Positions 2,141 to 52,880 of a stretch of DNA of 64,000 bases are shown here, piece after piece; position 1 is the first letter of the stretch, and each line of letters begins with the position of its first letter. The DNA lies in assembly GCF_055900595.2 (NCBI RefSeq), contig NZ_CM148325.1; one strand, written 5' to 3'. Under the pieces are notes generated by a model. It searched no databases and was not told the DNA's origin. It saw only the letters and a list, made by a program, of their open reading frames with translations. Both the position numbers and the translations under genes were made by a program.

Positions 2141-2927
2141 TAAACGTTGGCCAGTGCGGCTGTTGGTGCCAGATAGCCAGGTTAACCAACAGCCCTGCCG
2201 GAACGTGCATATTATTCATAATGCCCAGCGTTCCGGCGTCCACCTGAGTCGCGCCGTAGTTCCACATAAAGTAGCCAATACCGGAAGCCACCACGCCAAG
2301 AAACACCAGAATGCCCCATTGCAGCGTGGTTTGCGGCATTTTCTGCGCATTTCCCAGCAAGAACCATGCAATCACCGCCACCAGGAACGCGCCAAGATAG
2401 AACCACGCAAAGGCGTTATGCTGCGGCATCGGGCGAGTTTCCATCAGGCGTTTGTAGCCCACCATGCCGATGGCAAAAGTGATATTGGAGAGTTGCACCA
2501 GCAACAGGCCGGTCCAGAAATGGTCAGTGACCTGATCATAGCGAATAATCCCGGCACCAATCACCGCCAACAAGGCGCTAAAAGCATAGCCCCAGCGCAG
2601 ACGGCGCTTACTCATGATGTCATAAATCAGCGTGATGTAGAGCGGCGTCAGTACGGTGAACAGCAACAGTTCGGAGACCGTCAGGTAGAGATAGGCGCGA
2701 AAACTCAGCATATACATCACGCCAAGCTGCATCGCGCCCACCAGCATATACAGACCGACCGTTTTCAGGCTATTGCCACGGGTACGCAGAAACGGCAGAA
2801 ACACGAGTGCCGCCAGGCCAACGCGCACCAGCACTGCAAAATAGCTATCGACGTGCCCCGCAAGGTACTCGCCATAAAAGCTAAAGGAGAAGGCCCACAG
2901 AATCGTGGTGATGATAAGTAGCGCCAC
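2028..2927 (-). CDS. yigM: Inner-membrane EamA/DMT-family transporter YigM (biotin uptake, BioP)
   Basis: The track ORF (2028..3002) is N-terminally extended. The polytopic membrane protein matches YigM (299 aa) if it starts at the GTG at 2925-2927 ([15 protein letters not shown]...). Its 3' end overlaps the metR 3' end by 113 bp. Confidence 0.85.
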
Positions 2928-3002
2928 AATGGAAAACTCTTTGATTAACGAGTATCCATTGTAGCGAAGTATCAGGTTGACAACTGACCAAATAAAGAAC
3001 AA

Positions 3003-3803
3003 TTACGATAAATAGAGTTTACGCAGATAATGCGGCACCGCGTCGTCGGCATTAGTACCAATCACTTCCAGCTCCGGATGCAGATCTTTCAGACGCTGGT
3101 GCGCACTGCCCATAATGCAGCCTTTACCTGCCATCGACAGCATTTCGGCGTCGTTCATCCCGTCACCAAAGGCAATACAATCTTTCAGACTGTAGCCCAG
3201 TTTCTTCGCTACCGCTTCCAGGGCATGGCCTTTTGAAACGCCACCCGCCATCACTTCCAGACAAGTTAGGGTAGAGAAGCTGACGTTGACGCGATCGCCC
3301 CAACGAGCGTTGATTGCCTGCTCCAGCGGCAGCAGTTGCTCATGGGAATCGCAGGTGAAGAACACTTTGCTGACGCCTTCCGGCTCCAGTAATCCTGGCT
3401 CATACAGCGCATATTTGAACACCGCTTCTTTAAAAAAGCGCATCTCTTCCGGGCGGTGGCGATTCATAAACCATTCGTCGTCGCGATAAACGTTAGTAAT
3501 GATGTCCGGGTTGTCGTTGACCACGCCAAACAGATCGCTGGCAATGTCGCGATCCAGGTTATGAGCAAAAATCAGATTGCCATCCAGATCGTGAACACGC
3601 GCGCCATTGGAGGTAATCATGTAAGACTTAATCTCCAGATTATCGCGAATTTGCCCTACATCAACGTGGTGGCGACCGGTCGCAAACACAAAGTTAATGC
3701 CGCGCGCGGTGAGCAGCTTCAGAGTTTCTTTGGCGTAAGGGGATAACGTATGGTCGGGAGAAAGTAACGTGCCATCTAAATCAGACGCAACAACCTGGTA
3801 CAT
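3003..3803 (-). CDS. yigL: HAD-superfamily sugar-phosphate phosphatase YigL
   Basis: Track ORF 3003..3929 trimmed to the internal ATG at 3801-3803, giving MYQVVASDLDGTLLSPDHTLSPYAKETLKLLTARGINFVFATGR (the HAD DxDGT motif), 266 aa. Immediately downstream of pldB, as in the pldB-yigL operon. Confidence 0.9.
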   Translation of the reverse strand: MYQVVASDLDGTLLSPDHTLSPYAKETLKLLTARGINFVFATGRHHVDVGQIRDNLEIKSYMITSNGARVHDLDGNLIFAHNLDRDIASDLFGVVNDNPDIITNVYRDDEWFMNRHRPEEMRFFKEAVFKYALYEPGLLEPEGVSKVFFTCDSHEQLLPLEQAINARWGDRVNVSFSTLTCLEVMAGGVSKGHALEAVAKKLGYSLKDCIAFGDGMNDAEMLSMAGKGCIMGSAHQRLKDLHPELEVIGTNADDAVPHYLRKLYLS

Positions 3804-3810
3804 AAGAAAT

Positions 3811-4833
3811 TTAAACCTCTGTAGAGCGGTTTCCGCTGGGTGAGTTATGCCTGTTGAAAAAATCAACAATGGCGTGGAGCGCGACTGAGCGCATTGCGTC
3901 CTTTTCAAAAAGGATCTCATGGTACGCACCTTTAATTACCAGCGGTCGTCCCCCTTCGACAGGATGGCCCGCAGCGGTGCGGAGTTCACAAAAACGGTCG
4001 TGCATGCGGTTATCCACCACGCGTTCCTCTTCAGCCTGCAAGAGAAGCGTTGGCGTGGCGTCATCACCCGCACCGGCTAACACCTGTTCGCCAGCCAGAA
4101 TACTTTCGCGTACCCAATGGTAGGTCGGCCCACCGACGCGAATCGTTGGGTCATCAGCATAGAAGCGTAAGTTACGTCGATATCGCTGTCTGCTGTGGGT
4201 CAGTACGTTGATAGCAAACGGCAACGCGCGCCAGCGCCCGGTGCCTATTGCATAGCCATCACGGAAACGGGGATGCGCTTCGGCCCAGTTAAGGATCTGC
4301 CGCGCCATAAATGACGGCATACGAATCACGATCCCAAACATTGGCGCAGTTAGCGCAATGGCGTCACATACACCTGGATGGCGTTGCAGAAATAACGTGG
4401 AGATCGCACCGCCCATCGAATGTGCCAGTATATAGCGCTTACGCCACGGACCGGGCTGGACCTCCTGTTGCCAGAATGCCGCCAGATCATCAACATAATC
4501 ATTAAAGCGATTAACATGCCCAAGATGCGGATCGGCTAACAGGCGACCGGAACGTCCCTGCCCGCGATGGTCGATGATTAAGACATCAAACCCCAAATGG
4601 AACAGGTCGTAGGCCAGTTCCGCATATTTTACGTAGCTCTCAATACGCCCCGGGCAGATGACTATCACCCGGTCATGGTGCTGTGCGCGAAAACGGACAA
4701 AGCGCACCGGAATGTCATCTACACCAGTAAACTCTGCTTCATCACGCTGACGCCAGAAATCAGTCAGCGGTCCCATGGTAAAAGCAGCAAACGCGTTTTC
4801 TCTTGTTTCCCAGTCTTTTTGCTGCTGAAACAT
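3811..4833 (-). CDS. pldB: Lysophospholipase L2
   Basis: 340-aa ORF (MFQQQKDWETRENAFAAFTMGPL...), alpha/beta hydrolase with a GHSMGG nucleophile elbow. Length and sequence match PldB. Confidence 0.95.
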   Translation of the reverse strand: MFQQQKDWETRENAFAAFTMGPLTDFWRQRDEAEFTGVDDIPVRFVRFRAQHHDRVIVICPGRIESYVKYAELAYDLFHLGFDVLIIDHRGQGRSGRLLADPHLGHVNRFNDYVDDLAAFWQQEVQPGPWRKRYILAHSMGGAISTLFLQRHPGVCDAIALTAPMFGIVIRMPSFMARQILNWAEAHPRFRDGYAIGTGRWRALPFAINVLTHSRQRYRRNLRFYADDPTIRVGGPTYHWVRESILAGEQVLAGAGDDATPTLLLQAEEERVVDNRMHDRFCELRTAAGHPVEGGRPLVIKGAYHEILFEKDAMRSVALHAIVDFFNRHNSPSGNRSTEV

Positions 4834-4943
4834 CGGGTAATCTGCCTCTTAAACCACGTAAAATCGTTTTTTTAAGCGTGTCTGACACAACGCTGCGACA
4901 GTAGCGTATTGTGGCACAAAAATAGACACACCGGGAGTTCATC

Positions 4944-5564
4944 ATGACCTTAGAATGGTGGTTTGCCTACCTGCTAACATCAATCATTTTAAGCCTGTCG
5001 CCAGGCTCTGGTGCAATCAACACCATGACCACCTCGCTCAACCACGGTTATCGTGGTGCGATGGCGTCTATTGCTGGGCTTCAGACCGGACTGGCGATTC
5101 ATATTGTGCTGGTTGGTGTGGGGTTGGGTACGCTATTCTCCCGCTCAGTGATTGCGTTTGAAGTGTTGAAGTGGGCAGGAGCAGCTTATTTGATTTGGCT
5201 GGGTATCCAGCAGTGGCGTGCTGCTGGCGCAATTGATCTTAAATCGCTGGCCTCTACTCAATCGCGCCGACATTTGTTCCAACGCGCAGTGTTTGTGAAT
5301 CTCACCAATCCCAAAAGTATTGTGTTTCTGGCGGCGCTCTTTCCGCAATTCATCATGCTGCAGCAGCCGCAACTGATGCAGTATATCGTGCTCGGCGTCA
5401 CCACTATTGTGGTCGATATTATTGTGATGATCGGTTACGCCACCCTCGCCCAACGGATCGCATTATGGATAAAAGGGCCAAAACAGATGAAGGCATTGAA
5501 TAAGATTTTCGGCTCGTTGTTTATGCTGGTAGGAGCGTTGTTGGCATCGGCGAGGCATGCGTGA
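4944..5564 (+). CDS. rhtB: LysE/RhtB-family homoserine / homoserine-lactone exporter
   Basis: 206-aa membrane protein ([28 protein letters not shown]...), divergent from pldB and convergent with rhtC, as in E. coli. Confidence 0.95.
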
Positions 5565-19469: not shown

Positions 19470-19557
19470 TATGGATTGCCTGTAAAGTTCATCGCTTTCT
19501 GCTTTCTATCATCGCAGGAGAAGACGTAAAAGCAAGCGTTTAGCGACTCTTTATGAA

Positions 19558-19560
19558 GTC
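19558..19560. repeat. Target-site duplication (GTC), left copy, flanking the IS629-like element
   Basis: GTC immediately abuts the IS terminus at 19561 and is repeated at 20871-20873. Confidence 0.75.
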
Positions 19561-19602
19561 TGAACCGCCCCGGGTTTCCTGGAGAGTGTTTTATCTGTGA
19601 AC

Positions 19603-20493
19603 TCAGGCTGCCAGATCATCGTTTCCGATGGAAGCATAATAAGCTTTTTCTGCTTCTGCCGGAGGAGTATGGCCCAGCCTTCCCAGCAATCGTCGATTGT
19701 TATACCAGTCCACCCACGTTAGTGTGGCCAGTTCCACTTCTGCACGGTTTTTCCAGCTCTTACGGTGTATTACCTCCGCTTTGTAAAGACCATTGATGCT
19801 CTCAGCCATCGCGTTGTCATACGAGTCGCCTGTACTCCCTGTTGATGCCAGTAATCCGGCTTCTTTTAGTCGCTCCGTATAGGCCAGTGACACATACTGA
19901 GAGCCTTTATCGCTGTGATGGATGGTGCCAGACGGACGACGGGCCCACAACGCCTGCTCCAGCGCATCCAGCACGAATGTCGTTTCCATAGACGATGAGA
20001 CCCGCCACCCCACGATGTATCCGGCAAACACATCAATGATAAACGCCACATAGACGAAGCCCTGCCATGTGCTGACGTAAGTAAAATCAGCCACCCACAG
20101 CTGGTCAGGTCGTTCTGCCACGAACTGACGGTTTACGCGGTCGCCTGCGGCAACGGCTTTCCGGCTGATGGTCGTACGGACCTTTTTACCCCGGAGAACA
20201 CCGGCAAGTCCCATAACCGCCATGAGACGTGCCACTGTACATCTGGCCACCCTGATTCCTTCCCGTAACAACTGACGCCAGACTTTACGCACACCGTACA
20301 CCTGATGATTTTCATCGTATACGCGCTGTATCTCTCTCTTCAGCCAGTCGTCGTGCTGCGCACGGGCACTGCGTTTATCCGGATGATGTCGCTGTTGCTG
20401 ACAATGGTAATACGTTGACGGGGCAATATGCAGTTCGCTGCATACCGGTCCGACCCCGTACTGCTCACGCAGCTTATCCAGCAGTGGCATCAT
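19603..20493 (-). CDS. IS629-like transposase OrfB (DDE integrase/catalytic domain)
   Basis: 296-aa ORF ([33 protein letters not shown]...) with an rve-type catalytic core (…[31 protein letters not shown]…[10 protein letters not shown]…[16 protein letters not shown]). In the -1 frame relative to orfA. Confidence 0.9.
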
Positions 20494-20816
20494 TTTTTCC
20501 AGAGGCGGTCGAACTCCGCCTTCGCAAAATAAGCGGAAGCCTGGCGAAGGATATCGTTACTGCGGCGCAGTTCACGATTTTCACGTTCCAGCTCTTTCAG
20601 ACGCTGACGTTCAGCGCTGGTGAGCCCACCATCACCGCCCCCGGTATCCCGCTCATGCTGGCGAACCCAGACACGCAGAGTCTCCGGCGTACAGCCAATC
20701 TTTGGAGCAATGGAACAAATTGCCGCCCACTGTGAGTCATATTCATCCTGACTTTCCAGAACCATACGAATCGCCCGCTGACGGACTTCGGGGGAAAAAC
20801 GAGTATTTTTAGTCAT
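20490..20816 (-). CDS. IS629-like transposase OrfA (HTH and leucine-zipper protein)
   Basis: 108-aa [67 protein letters not shown]...[28 protein letters not shown]. Ends in the A-run CTCTGGAAAAAATGA, where orfB begins in the -1 frame. Confidence 0.9.
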
Positions 20817-20870
20817 CCTGTTTACCTCTTTCTCAGGGAGTTTAGTCTCCAGGATTTCCGGGGCGGTTCA

Positions 20871-20873
20871 GTC
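20871..20873. repeat. Target-site duplication (GTC), right copy
   Basis: Direct repeat of 19558-19560, immediately outside the IS terminus at 20870. Confidence 0.75.
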
Positions 20874-20970
20874 TGAAAAATGAGGAATTGCTGCGAGTAT
20901 AACGCTTACACGTGGGGATTTATGTTTTGCTGGTAGTTTCGTGATCGGCACCTCGCGCCAGGATGGCTTT

Positions 20971-22449
20971 ATGCACTATCGCAATGTGGTTTGTTTGTTG
21001 TCTTGTTCGTTATTCTTATCCCCGGCATGGGGATGTCGGCTTTCCGCGCCTGAACATAATATTTACCAGAAACAGGGAAAAGGCGTGGTGTACCTGCGCC
21101 CTTATAAAGAAACAAATCTTTCTCTACCTGACGTGAATTACAAGAGTTTGCGTCGTTTACCTAATTTATTAATAGACGCAACAACACAAGATGAATGGAA
21201 TAAAGAACCACCTCTGACTGATCTAACAACTGACAACCTCTATGAGGGCGCACAAGCCTGGTATCCCCATTACTCCTGGCATAGCGATGGTCGCTATATC
21301 CTCTACGCGGGTGAAGTAGTGCAAAATCCTCACGACGCACCACCCGTCGATATCGCCTCATTCAAGGCATGGGGAGATTTTGCCGCGGATAAACACAGTC
21401 TCTATTTTGAAGGCAAGCGCACCGATAACAATGGCGGGGGAAATAGCTTAGATATCAAAACACTGCATCAGGTGGAATTCCGGCCTCCCTGGGATCCTGA
21501 CTTACTGGGGCTGATATTACGTGACGCTAATTTCTTGTATATCAATGGGCATCGCCTCGCAGATCCCGATAGTTTCCGTGTGCTGGCACAAAAGTCATGG
21601 GATCAGCGAGGAAAGTTTTCTACCGCGTTTAATCCCTGTGTGGCTATGCCATTTGGCCCCTGGGATACCCTGGCTCGTACACGGACCAAAATCCTGATCA
21701 ACGGCGAACAGCTTGATGCCGACCCGGACACCTTTTCCGTCGTGCGCTGGATGCCCGGCTCACTCTTGACCTGGCGTGATAAAAACGGGCTACAGCGTAA
21801 AGTCCTCGACAAGGAAAATCTGGCGTGGGATGAAGATTTAACAAAGCACTGTCTGGATTTTTCTCTGCTGGAAAAGAAAGTGTTCTGGCGTAAAGGGCCT
21901 GCTTGTAAACAGGAAGAATTACCGGGGCTCGATCCTGAACAGTTCCACCCCATCAGTGATGCTGTCGCCCAGTATCAGGATTCGCTTTATACCATCATCG
22001 AAACAGAGTCTGGTGACCGCAAGCTGGAGATCGTAAAACTTGATGATCCCAATCTTATTATCAACAAACGTTTCAACGCCGGGAAACGCCATGGCTATTT
22101 ACTTACGCGTGCCGAAGGGTGGCCAAACCATTCCGGTTTACACGTGTTTGAATCTGACGGACCGCTGATCTTACTGGATAACCACTCTCCGGATGAACGC
22201 GAAGCCCATCTTGATGACCATCCCTTTTTGCGCAGATGGTATGCCCGCGATAACCGCTACGTTTACAGCTTTGATGGCGCGCAGCTCTGGCGATACCGCA
22301 CTGCGGATCCGAAACAAGTTCGCTTAATCTGGAAGGAACAACATTCGGGATATGGCTACGGGGTAAATTACAAAACGGGATATCTGGACGGAAAAATTAC
22401 CGATGACGGCGAATTTATTCCTGCCCCGCGCAATGAGGCGACAAAATGA
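20971..22449 (+). CDS. Secreted protein with DKNYY-like repeats (paralogue 1); function unknown
   Basis: Track ORF 20941..22449 trimmed to the ATG at 20971, with AGGA 7 nt upstream. Hydrophobic signal-like N-terminus MHYRNVVCLLSCSLFLSPAWGC. Recurrent motifs DKHSLYFEGKR, DANFLYINGHRLADPDSF and DNRYVYSFDG. Family assignment is by motif recall, not a database search. The segment looks AT-richer than its flanks by eye. Confidence 0.75.
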   Translation: MHYRNVVCLLSCSLFLSPAWGCRLSAPEHNIYQKQGKGVVYLRPYKETNLSLPDVNYKSLRRLPNLLIDATTQDEWNKEPPLTDLTTDNLYEGAQAWYPHYSWHSDGRYILYAGEVVQNPHDAPPVDIASFKAWGDFAADKHSLYFEGKRTDNNGGGNSLDIKTLHQVEFRPPWDPDLLGLILRDANFLYINGHRLADPDSFRVLAQKSWDQRGKFSTAFNPCVAMPFGPWDTLARTRTKILINGEQLDADPDTFSVVRWMPGSLLTWRDKNGLQRKVLDKENLAWDEDLTKHCLDFSLLEKKVFWRKGPACKQEELPGLDPEQFHPISDAVAQYQDSLYTIIETESGDRKLEIVKLDDPNLIINKRFNAGKRHGYLLTRAEGWPNHSGLHVFESDGPLILLDNHSPDEREAHLDDHPFLRRWYARDNRYVYSFDGAQLWRYRTADPKQVRLIWKEQHSGYGYGVNYKTGYLDGKITDDGEFIPAPRNEATK

Positions 22450-31258: not shown

Positions 31259-31858
31259 ATGTCAAAATTGCGCACGCCGTCCCGCTATCTTTTCCGCTTG
31301 CCATCGCATGAAATTACTCCTTTTCGGGCAACGCTCTTTTTAATCTTGTTGATATGTGCCGCTCTGGCTGGCGTAAGTTGGCTGATTATTTCCTTTGTGC
31401 GTACGGGCAATACATTCATCTTCTGGTTAACACTTTTTATTGGGTATCTGATAGCTGCGGCGAAGCAGGAAAAAATCAAGCTCCTCAAGAAGTACCGAAT
31501 CATGGCAGATAAACGTCGGGTACGCTCCATTTGCCAGTTCGCCCGCGAATTTGACACCTACACCGTAGATACATGGGTGATTCGTGCGGTGTGGGATACC
31601 TTGCAAGGAAACGGCTATATCGATTACCCACTGCCACTGAAAGCCGATGATATACTGGACGATGATCTGGATTTGGTGCGCGACGCAGTCGAGTTAGAAG
31701 AGCTGGTTGAAGATACCGCTGCTCGTTGCGGGCGCGATCTATGCGGAATAGAAGAGAATCCGTTTCTTCCCATCGTCACGGTAGGCTCTCTTGTAAGAGT
31801 TTTAAACGCGCAACCGATGACCCAGGAGCGACGTAACCAGTTCTTTATTCGGTCATAA
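31259..31858 (+). CDS. Hypothetical membrane-anchored protein (two predicted transmembrane helices and an acidic cytoplasmic domain); function unknown
   Basis: 199-codon ORF starting 7 nt after the hemY terminator T-tract, with its stop (TAA, 31856-31858) overlapping the 3' end of GlmZ on the opposite strand. N-terminus TLFLILLICAALAGVSWLIISFV / FIFWLTLFIGYLIAAA; C-terminal acidic stretch DDILDDDLDLVRDAVELEELVED. Ordinary codon usage by eye. No convincing Shine-Dalgarno (only AGG abutting the ATG). I do not recognise the protein. Confidence 0.5.
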   Translation: MSKLRTPSRYLFRLPSHEITPFRATLFLILLICAALAGVSWLIISFVRTGNTFIFWLTLFIGYLIAAAKQEKIKLLKKYRIMADKRRVRSICQFAREFDTYTVDTWVIRAVWDTLQGNGYIDYPLPLKADDILDDDLDLVRDAVELEELVEDTAARCGRDLCGIEENPFLPIVTVGSLVRVLNAQPMTQERRNQFFIRS

Positions 31859-32063
31859 AAAAACGCCTGCTCTTATTACGGAGCAGGCGTTAAAACAGGT
31901 CTGTATGACAACAAGTGGGTGCTTCACTCAACGTTGTGTCCATGGTGTCTGATGAGGCATAAGCGACATCTGTCAGTGGACGATAAGCACCGTAAACGGC
32001 TCTGCGTCATTCCGGAGTTTATGAGGCACTAAGGCGAACATAAGAGATGGAATGAGCATCTAC
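31857..32063 (-). ncRNA. glmZ: Small regulatory RNA GlmZ (activator of glmS translation)
   Basis: Reverse complement of 31857-32063 reads GTAGATGCTCATTCCATCTCTTATGTTCGCC...AACGCCTGCTCCGTAATAAGAGCAGGCGTTTTTTT, matching GlmZ (207 nt) including its 3' terminator hairpin and U-tract. Lies between hemY and aslA as expected. Confidence 0.9.
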
Positions 32064-35699: not shown

Positions 35700-35776
35700 T
35701 GGTCGGCGAGAGAGGATTCGAACCTCCGACCCACTGGTCCCAAACCAGTTGCGCTACCAAGCTGCGCTACTCGCCG
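35700..35776 (-). tRNA. proM: tRNA-Pro
   Basis: Reverse complement is CGGCGAGTAGCGCAGCTTGGTAGCGCAACTGGTTTGGGACCAGTGGGTCGGAGGTTCGAATCCTCTCTCGCCGACCA (77 nt, CCA encoded). Confidence 0.97.
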
Positions 35777-35818
35777 AAATACTGCTTTTTGAATTTTTAG
35801 TTCAATTTTTTAAAGTCG

Positions 35819-35905
35819 TGGTGCGAGGGGGGGGACTTGAACCCCCACGTCCGTAAGGACACTAACACCTGAAGCTAGCGCGTCTACCAATTCCGCCACC
35901 TTCGC
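35819..35905 (-). tRNA. leuT: tRNA-Leu (CAG)
   Basis: Reverse complement is GCGAAGGTGGCGGAATTGGTAGACGCGCTAGCTTCAGGTGTTAGTGTCCTTACGGACGTGGGGGTTCAAGTCCCCCCCCTCGCACCA (87 nt, long variable arm). Confidence 0.97.
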
Positions 35906-35925
35906 ATTGTCACAACTTCTAATAA

Positions 35926-36002
35926 TGGGGTGGCTAATGGGATTCGAACCCACGACAACTGGAATCACAATCCAGGGCTCTACCAACTGAGCTATAGCCA
36001 CC
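35926..36002 (-). tRNA. hisR: tRNA-His (GUG)
   Basis: Reverse complement is GGTGGCTATAGCTCAGTTGGTAGAGCCCTGGATTGTGATTCCAGTTGTCGTGGGTTCGAATCCCATTAGCCACCCCA (77 nt). Confidence 0.97.
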
Positions 36003-36059
36003 ACTACAAATCTTGTTACGCGGTATTACTACCACCGCAGCTCAAGCGCCGGGACTAAA

Positions 36060-36136
<77 letters not shown>

Positions 36137-52420: not shown

Positions 52421-52750
52421 TTACGCCAGGTTAGCGTCGAGGAACTCTTTCAACTGACCTTTAGACAGTGCGCCCACTTTGGTTGCCGCCACTTCACCGT
52501 TTTTGAACAGCAGCAGAGTCGGGATACCACGGATGCCATATTTCGGCGCAGTGCCAGGGTTTTGATCGATGTTCAGTTTTGCAACGGTCAGTTTGCCCTG
52601 ATATTCGTCAGCGATTTCATCCAGAATCGGGGCGATCATTTTGCACGGACCGCACCACTCTGCCCAGAAATCAACGAGGATCGCCCCGTCCGCTTTGAGT
52701 ACATCCGTGTCAAAACTGTCGTCAGTCAGGTGAATAATTTTATCGCTCAT
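52421..52750 (-). CDS. trxA: Thioredoxin 1
   Basis: Track ORF trimmed to the ATG at 52748-52750, giving [50 protein letters not shown]... (109 aa, WCGPC active site). Confidence 0.97.
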
Positions 52751-52880
52751 ATATAACTCCACAGGAATAAGCCTGGCGTGTTGGTTTCGTTGTTGGTGTA
52801 ACATTAACCAACTAAAGGTTGACTTTATTTCACCGGATACGCTTTCGTAAAGCAATAGTAAGCTGATATTCTACCACACT

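Follow-up and report, generated by a model that had tools for sequence, protein, structure and literature searches.

The window, by which we mean the whole stretch of 64,000 nucleotides that was analysed (RefSeq assembly GCF_055900595.2, contig NZ_CM148325.1), contains the pldB-yigL operon of Escherichia coli. This operon is a characterised target of SgrS, the small RNA (sRNA) of glucose-phosphate stress, and its SgrS pairing site is intact at positions 3899-3879. We put the probability of this reading at roughly 0.9. Both genes and the junction between them were defined as follows:

4833..3811, minus strand: pldB, lysophospholipase L2, 340 aa, with its ATG at 4833 and its TAA stop at 3813-3811 (ORF list, script, RefSeq and Pfam)
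3810-3804, minus strand: pldB-yigL spacer of 7 nt, ATTTCTT (AUUUCUU in the RNA), read from the sequence; the gap is equal in K-12
3803..3003, minus strand: yigL, HAD/Cof-type sugar phosphatase, 266 aa, with its ATG at 3803-3801 (Pfam and RefSeq)

The original prediction had pldB stopping at 3811 and yigL starting at 3803 after a spacer of 7 nt, and these positions are correct according to the minus-strand reading, the ORF list and a coordinate script. The gap in K-12 is also 7 nt, as pldB ends at 4010192 and yigL starts at 4010200. The two genes are directly consecutive on one strand, which is the arrangement of a dicistronic operon (ORF list, RefSeq, K-12 and Pfam). Several complete E. coli genomes match positions 2900-5000 with 100% identity, and their RefSeq annotation of this stretch names pldB, yigL, rhtB and bioP; the stretch was found in 5425 of 5426 E. 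coli genomes. The window pldB-yigL region shares 97.5% identity with K-12, with zero differences across pldB +910..+965 and from +967 through the yigL start codon. Judged by these matches, the window is E. coli DNA and carries an ordinary E. coli pldB-yigL operon.

The domain content of the two proteins agrees with their names. PldB matched the alpha/beta hydrolase families PF12146 and PF00561 (190 and 139 bits, residues 52-312) and YigL matched the HAD/Cof-type family PF08282 (216 bits, residues 5-260). The N-terminus of YigL, MYQVVASDLDGTLL, contains the N-terminal DxD motif of Cof-type phosphatases. The longest open frame of yigL runs from a GTG at 3929 (3003..3929), and we rejected this as the real N-terminus. 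As stops interrupt the upstream part of that frame in most relatives, ATG 3803 is the real yigL start.

Papenfort, Sun, Miyakoshi, Vanderpool and Vogel are said to have described, in Cell in 2013, the activation of the pldB-yigL mRNA by SgrS in both Salmonella and E. coli, reportedly the first case of gene activation by an sRNA that covers an RNase E site within the coding sequence of an upstream gene. Reviews of this system state that yigL is co-transcribed with pldB and that RNase E cuts inside pldB, leaving a 'pldB-yigL RNA that is free of pldB-translating ribosomes and is otherwise degraded further; SgrS pairing hides one particular RNase E site ahead of yigL and so stabilises the RNA, independently of translation (PMC4021124, PMC4098024). 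In a CLASH study, SgrS was mapped to pldB +935-955, with the RNase E site that it covers at +948-955 (PMC5286369). Bobrovskyy et al. used a yigL transcript from -191 to +50 relative to the AUG for in-vitro binding, which was barely detectable, and placed yigL alongside ptsG among the high-priority targets of SgrS in vivo (bioRxiv 10.1101/221978). The mechanism that the original prediction gave for this junction, in which the dicistronic mRNA is cut by RNase E and SgrS stabilises the yigL part by pairing within pldB, is thus supported by the published record (PMC4021124, PMC4098024, PMC5286369). According to this literature, the window operon would be transcribed as a dicistronic mRNA and cut by RNase E inside pldB. 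The resulting 'pldB-yigL fragment, uncovered by pldB-translating ribosomes, would be open to further RNase E decay until SgrS, together with Hfq, paired with it in the 3' end of the pldB coding sequence and covered the cleavage site. The yigL message would then be stabilised and more YigL phosphatase would be made, independently of translation. Two positions of the published constructs and sites can be placed in the window:

3994, minus strand: yigL -191, the 5' end of the in-vitro construct (bioRxiv 10.1101/221978), which maps to a U-run (CG/UUUUUG)
3899-3879, minus strand: the SgrS pairing site, pldB +935..+955, which is -96..-76 from the yigL AUG (PMC5286369 and duplex scan)

The RNase E-processed 'pldB-yigL species may begin near position 3994 in vivo; no special synonymous constraint was seen near this presumed processing point. 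The pairing site reads ACGCAAUGCGCUCAGUCGCGC and corresponds to pldB codons 312-319, so that it begins at the last residue of the hydrolase domain and extends into the PldB tail. The published RNase E cleavage region (+948..+955) maps to 3886-3879.

The original prediction did not locate the SgrS site and proposed to look for energetically favourable pairing in the 3' part of pldB (3811-4100, minus strand); such a site was found. We compared SgrS nt 158-190, taken from K-12 (L001 568-794), with every 24-nt segment of the 1.9-kb transcript from 4900 to 2990 on the minus strand. The best duplex of the interval, which is also the best of the whole transcript, lies at 3900-3878 with -24.5 kcal/mol. 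Its core helix comprises 12 contiguous pairs, three of them G-U, between mRNA GCUCAGUCGCGC (3890-3879) and SgrS nt 168-179 (GUGUGACUGAGU), and an additional helix of 4 bp joins ACGC (3899-3896) to SgrS 184-187. The segments of 24-26 nt replaced an unrestricted RNAduplex run of the seed against a 400-nt stretch, whose best hit (-26.4 kcal/mol, 4057-4012) contained a 16-nt internal loop and was rejected as an artefact of unrestricted loops. When opening energies were included by local partition-function folding, the site ranked first with K-12 SgrS (total -9.4 kcal/mol) and second with the strain-type SgrS allele, with -9.2 versus -10.4 kcal/mol for an unrelated pldB stretch, +389..+414. The predicted cost of opening the target site is ~10 kcal/mol and the net energy ~-9 kcal/mol; such a costly opening fits the weak in-vitro binding that was reported.

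These energies are of limited specificity. Duplexes at least as stable were obtained in 6 of 300 dinucleotide shuffles (2%) of the 290-nt interval 3811-4100, and helices of >=12 bp, with G-U allowed, in 55 of 1000 (5.5%). Thermodynamics alone would therefore be modest, even weak, evidence, as a prediction made from the sequence puts the site first in the list and proves nothing by doing so. Such shuffle frequencies speak for the possibility that the complementarity at 3899-3879 is a chance match, in which case its conservation would have to come from the protein, an overlapping frame, an internal promoter or another RNA partner. We consider this highly improbable. The published experimental site coincides exactly with the predicted one (PMC5286369), and the pattern of substitutions in related genomes, presented below, points the same way.

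The gene for SgrS is not in the window, and the cognate sRNA was therefore taken from a matching genome, NZ_CP098223.1, which is 100% identical to the window over 2900-5000. Located between sgrR and leuD, sgrS of this genome reaches 228 bits with the Rfam SgrS family (RF00534). SgrS nt 162-187, including the whole pairing region, are identical between NZ_CP098223.1 (L083 2169-2395) and K-12 (L001 568-794), and the pairing site in the window is complementary to these nucleotides of the NZ_CP098223.1 allele. Outside nt 162-187 this allele is ~88% identical to K-12. Among the 5426 E. coli genomes, 5399 carry sgrS, and two allele classes can be distinguished: 3230 genomes have an sgrS >=99% identical to that of K-12 and 2157 have one that is 80-90% identical. 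What separates the classes is the 3' part of sgrT and the sequence around the terminator. We also observed that setA is unannotated between sgrST and leuD in NZ_CP098223.1, which has the divergent sgrS allele.

A 13-nt core of SgrS, CUGAGUAuUGGUG, was reported to be nearly invariant (PMC2760817), while the Rfam consensus shows nt 171-173 to be variable in the wider family. The yigL helix uses just 6 nt of this core. Complementarity to the 13-nt core, sought in the 200 nt that precede yigL in the 80 genomes, did not differ from that of shuffles, and the test therefore has no power.

To investigate the site across species, we scanned species-representative genomes with YigL, which yielded 80 loci from Escherichia to Edwardsiella. 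Codon usage was analysed in 44 Enterobacteriaceae genomes, one per species, in which the peptide MRSVAL is kept at the site; these include Escherichia, Citrobacter, Salmonella, Enterobacter, Klebsiella, Kluyvera, Kosakonia and other genera. One block stood out:

3921-3880, minus strand: the strongest synonymous constraint in pldB, codons 305-318, +913..+954 (codon entropy, 44 species)

In windows of 12 codons, synonymous entropy was lowest at codons 305-317 (0.36) and next lowest at 306-318 (0.39), against a mean of 1.14 bits over 256 informative codons, and 0 of 5000 permutations reached the entropy of the 305-318 block. The block contains the SgrS site, so the site is under constraint beyond what coding for the protein needs. 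Its GAG, ATC, AAG and GAC codons are fixed in all sequences (43-44), and CTT is kept for Leu308 in 42 of 44 species; Leu263 and Leu264, by comparison, have an entropy of 2.1-2.3. Within the 12-nt helix, the 44 sequences show 16 differences from the window, and 14 of these (A->G facing U, C->U facing G or G->A facing U) leave a standard pair with the E. coli seed in place. Third-position synonymous changes in the four site codons are transitions in 14 of 15 cases, compared with 230 of 415 in flanking codons (Fisher p = 0.003). All these substitutions were counted per sequence and not per independent event, and the analysis applies the E. coli SgrS seed to the remaining 43 species as well. Buttiauxella, Serratia, Pectobacterium, Yersinia, Erwinia and others have RAEAL or similar in place of RSVAL, and complementarity to the E. 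coli seed is lost in the Buttiauxella and Serratia sequences tested (-9 to -13 kcal/mol).

Within E. coli, the 50-nt element at 3923-3874 is identical in 5089 of 5424 genomes and 335 differ somewhere. A strain of O157:H7, 146N4 (L085), carries C->U changes at pldB +951 and +955 inside the SgrS helix, one of which results in L319F. This variant keeps wobble pairs, and its predicted duplex is weaker (-24.5 -> -18.1 kcal/mol).

The evolutionary pattern is thus stronger evidence for the SgrS site than thermodynamics, and it bears directly on the chance reading. In favour of a protein origin of the conservation, the constrained block extends ~25 nt 5' of the duplex, into the codons of the catalytic-His motif HEILFEKD. 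However, the constraint was measured on synonymous codon choice, and the substitutions that occur retain SgrS pairing. An overlapping frame, which would encode an N-terminally extended YigL (dual coding), was rejected as the source of the constraint, as the upstream yigL frame is closed by in-frame stops, at -18 or similar, in most species that keep the site. An internal promoter was rejected as well: a search of the minus strand of 2800-5100 gave no sigma-70-like site. Nor does a known Rfam cis-element account for the constraint: there is none at the junction, and the Rfam matches in the window lie elsewhere. Recognition of the site by SgrS remains the reading that these observations favour.

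The constrained block is longer than the SgrS duplex, and two hairpins flank the site:

3914-3899, minus strand: hairpin UCCUUU-UUGA-AAAGGA, directly 5' of the SgrS site (MFE folds and pair counts)
3869-3851, minus strand: second hairpin, UUGUUGA-UUUUU-UCAACAG, 3' of the SgrS site and inside pldB (folds and pair counts)

Over ~25 nt on the 5' side of the duplex (3921-3899, minus strand), synonymous positions are frozen. In the near-invariant hairpin at 3914-3899, 4 of 6 pairs never vary, and one compensatory change from U-A to C-G was found, in Phytobacter. In the MFE folds, UGAG (3919-3916) pairs with CUCA (3889-3886), the centre of the SgrS target. This suggests that the block may be composite, with the SgrS duplex next to a separate module, made up of the hairpin at 3914-3899 and UGAG at 3919-3916, that hides CUCA until Hfq or SgrS opens it or that serves as a docking site for Hfq or RNase E. 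Several observations favour this tentative idea. The stretch +913..+936 is under synonymous constraint as strong as that of the duplex itself, the MFE folds form both the hairpin and the UGAG-CUCA pairing, and a compensatory change is present, if a single one. In addition, SgrS-yigL binding in vitro is barely detectable while regulation in vivo is efficient, which fits a closed or protein-dependent site (bioRxiv 10.1101/221978). On the other hand, the folding z-scores for the upstream hairpin region are not significant (-0.6 and -1.15), the invariance of most pairs means that covariation says little, and RNAalifold favours a partly different outer helix. The hairpin at 3914-3899 is thus a plausible but unproven structure, and we hold the composite reading to be possible rather than probable. 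The cited reviews, the CLASH study and bioRxiv 10.1101/221978 do not mention this hairpin, but the primary paper (Papenfort 2013) may already describe the region. If the composite reading is true, an anti-seed or docking module could explain why yigL is bound poorly in vitro and yet is a high-priority SgrS target in vivo. For the second hairpin, the alignment columns 69/79 hold C-G in 19 sequences, U-A in 11 and U-G in 4, and are broken in 6, so that covariation lends moderate support to this structure.

Short gaps between the genes of an operon are common, and a chance test is therefore not applicable to the 7-nt spacer. Two further features lie just upstream of it:

3837-3825, minus strand: small GC hairpin AGCGG-AAA-CCGCU, inside the lengthened pldB frame in Escherichia and intergenic in most genera
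3819-3815, minus strand: Shine-Dalgarno-like GAGGU of yigL, within the last pldB codons, 11 nt before the AUG and inside CCAGAGGUU

The gap is 7 nt in the Escherichia loci only. Wherever a pldB stop could be identified in other genera, it measures 8-53 nt: 8-15 nt in Citrobacter and Salmonella, and 21-52 nt in Enterobacter, Klebsiella, Kluyvera and others. In the genera with longer gaps, PldB ends ~10 codons earlier, at CAT AAC TGA or similar. The ancestral stop is TGA or TAA in Enterobacter, Klebsiella and others, whereas the same position reads TCA in Escherichia, where the frame runs on to give the tail SPSGNRSTEV (window 3811-3843, minus strand) and closes at a TAA just past the yigL Shine-Dalgarno sequence. 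The short gap of Escherichia thus results from loss of the ancestral pldB stop and read-through of the frame into former intergenic DNA. By this comparison, the 7-nt spacer is an incidental, Escherichia-specific feature that lies outside the conserved mechanism.

The CCAGAGGUU motif is kept in almost all of the 80 Enterobacterales loci in the alignment, and GAGGU at 3819-3815 probably serves as the yigL ribosome-binding site. Its distance of 11 nt from the AUG is long; it is ~10-15 nt in most of the 80 loci and shorter in a few, e.g., those of Mixta, Erwinia and Pantoea. The GC hairpin has counterparts with other stem sequences at the equivalent place in many Enterobacterales (CGGCG/CGCCG, GCGGC/GCCGC, GGCAG/CUGCC and AGCGG/CCGCU), in coding and intergenic positions alike, and sits ~10-15 nt upstream of the conserved motif. 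No counterpart was found in the sampled loci of Enterobacter, Lelliottia and Kosakonia.

The tight junction could also be a sign of translational coupling: ribosomes terminating at pldB on the yigL Shine-Dalgarno sequence would start again at AUG 3803, and it would be this coupling, not SgrS, that is decisive here. The geometry would permit termination-reinitiation on the full-length mRNA, with GAGGU within the final pldB codons and only 7 nt separating the stop from the AUG. This geometry is present in Escherichia and is not conserved among the other genera, where the gap is 8-53 nt. As the spacer varies from 7 to 53 nt between genera while the Shine-Dalgarno motif and the SgrS site stay put, the short gap reflects no conserved requirement. 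Moreover, activation of yigL was reported on processed RNA without pldB translation, and was independent of translation (PMC4021124). Coupling as the decisive factor is thus unlikely, but coupling and the SgrS mechanism are not mutually exclusive and can coexist.

Regulation by SgrS thus accounts best for the conserved part of this locus, and the original prediction points correctly to an already characterised system, from which nothing in the window departs. The window holds an intact textbook copy of a well-studied regulatory site, and there is little beyond confirmation in this. What is gained are the exact coordinates of the site, the recognition that the spacer is incidental, and support from sequence comparison across species, namely the synonymous constraint and the substitutions that keep pairing. 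The conserved hairpin adjacent to the site is flagged as a possible cofactor-binding or site-masking element.

Elsewhere, an IS3-family, IS1203-like element with an ALIL/AL1L frameshift pseudoknot (20419-20535, minus strand) occupies ~19550-20890. A 2-kb query of the region (19500-21500) was contiguous in 0 of 5426 complete E. coli genomes, and the insertion looks strain-specific. Other RNA features of the window are:

31857-32063, minus strand: GlmZ sRNA (218 bits)
52721-52820, minus strand: TrxA 5'-UTR thermometer (79 bits)
35700-36136, minus strand: tRNA cluster Arg(CCG)-His(GUG)-Leu(CAG)-Pro(UGG)

The closest known system is SgrS-pldB-yigL itself, as described in Papenfort 2013. The genes, the operon order and the organism are the same, the site lies at the published +935..+955 and is identical to K-12, and the SgrS seed is intact in the matching genome, so nothing differs at the site. 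The one difference from the K-12 system is that the lineage of the window has the divergent sgrS allele class, in which the pairing region is untouched.

Activation of the cfa mRNA by the sRNA RydC was reportedly described by Frohlich et al. in 2013. RydC-cfa is the second case of the same principle (PMC4021124, PMC4098024): here too, an sRNA binding ahead of the ribosome-binding site shields an RNase E site, and the mRNA becomes more stable independently of its translation. However, the RydC site lies in the 5' UTR of the primary transcript, whereas SgrS pairs within the upstream gene's own coding sequence, at a site said in the literature to be accessible only after a first processing cut. 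The repression of ptsG and manXYZ involves the same sRNA with an overlapping seed (the 13-nt core, PMC2760817), depends on Hfq and involves RNase E. In those mRNAs, SgrS pairs at or close to the ribosome-binding site, so that translation is blocked and decay promoted. In yigL, by contrast, pairing takes place 76-96 nt upstream of the AUG through SgrS nt 168-179, which include 6 nt of the invariant core, and the mRNA is protected.
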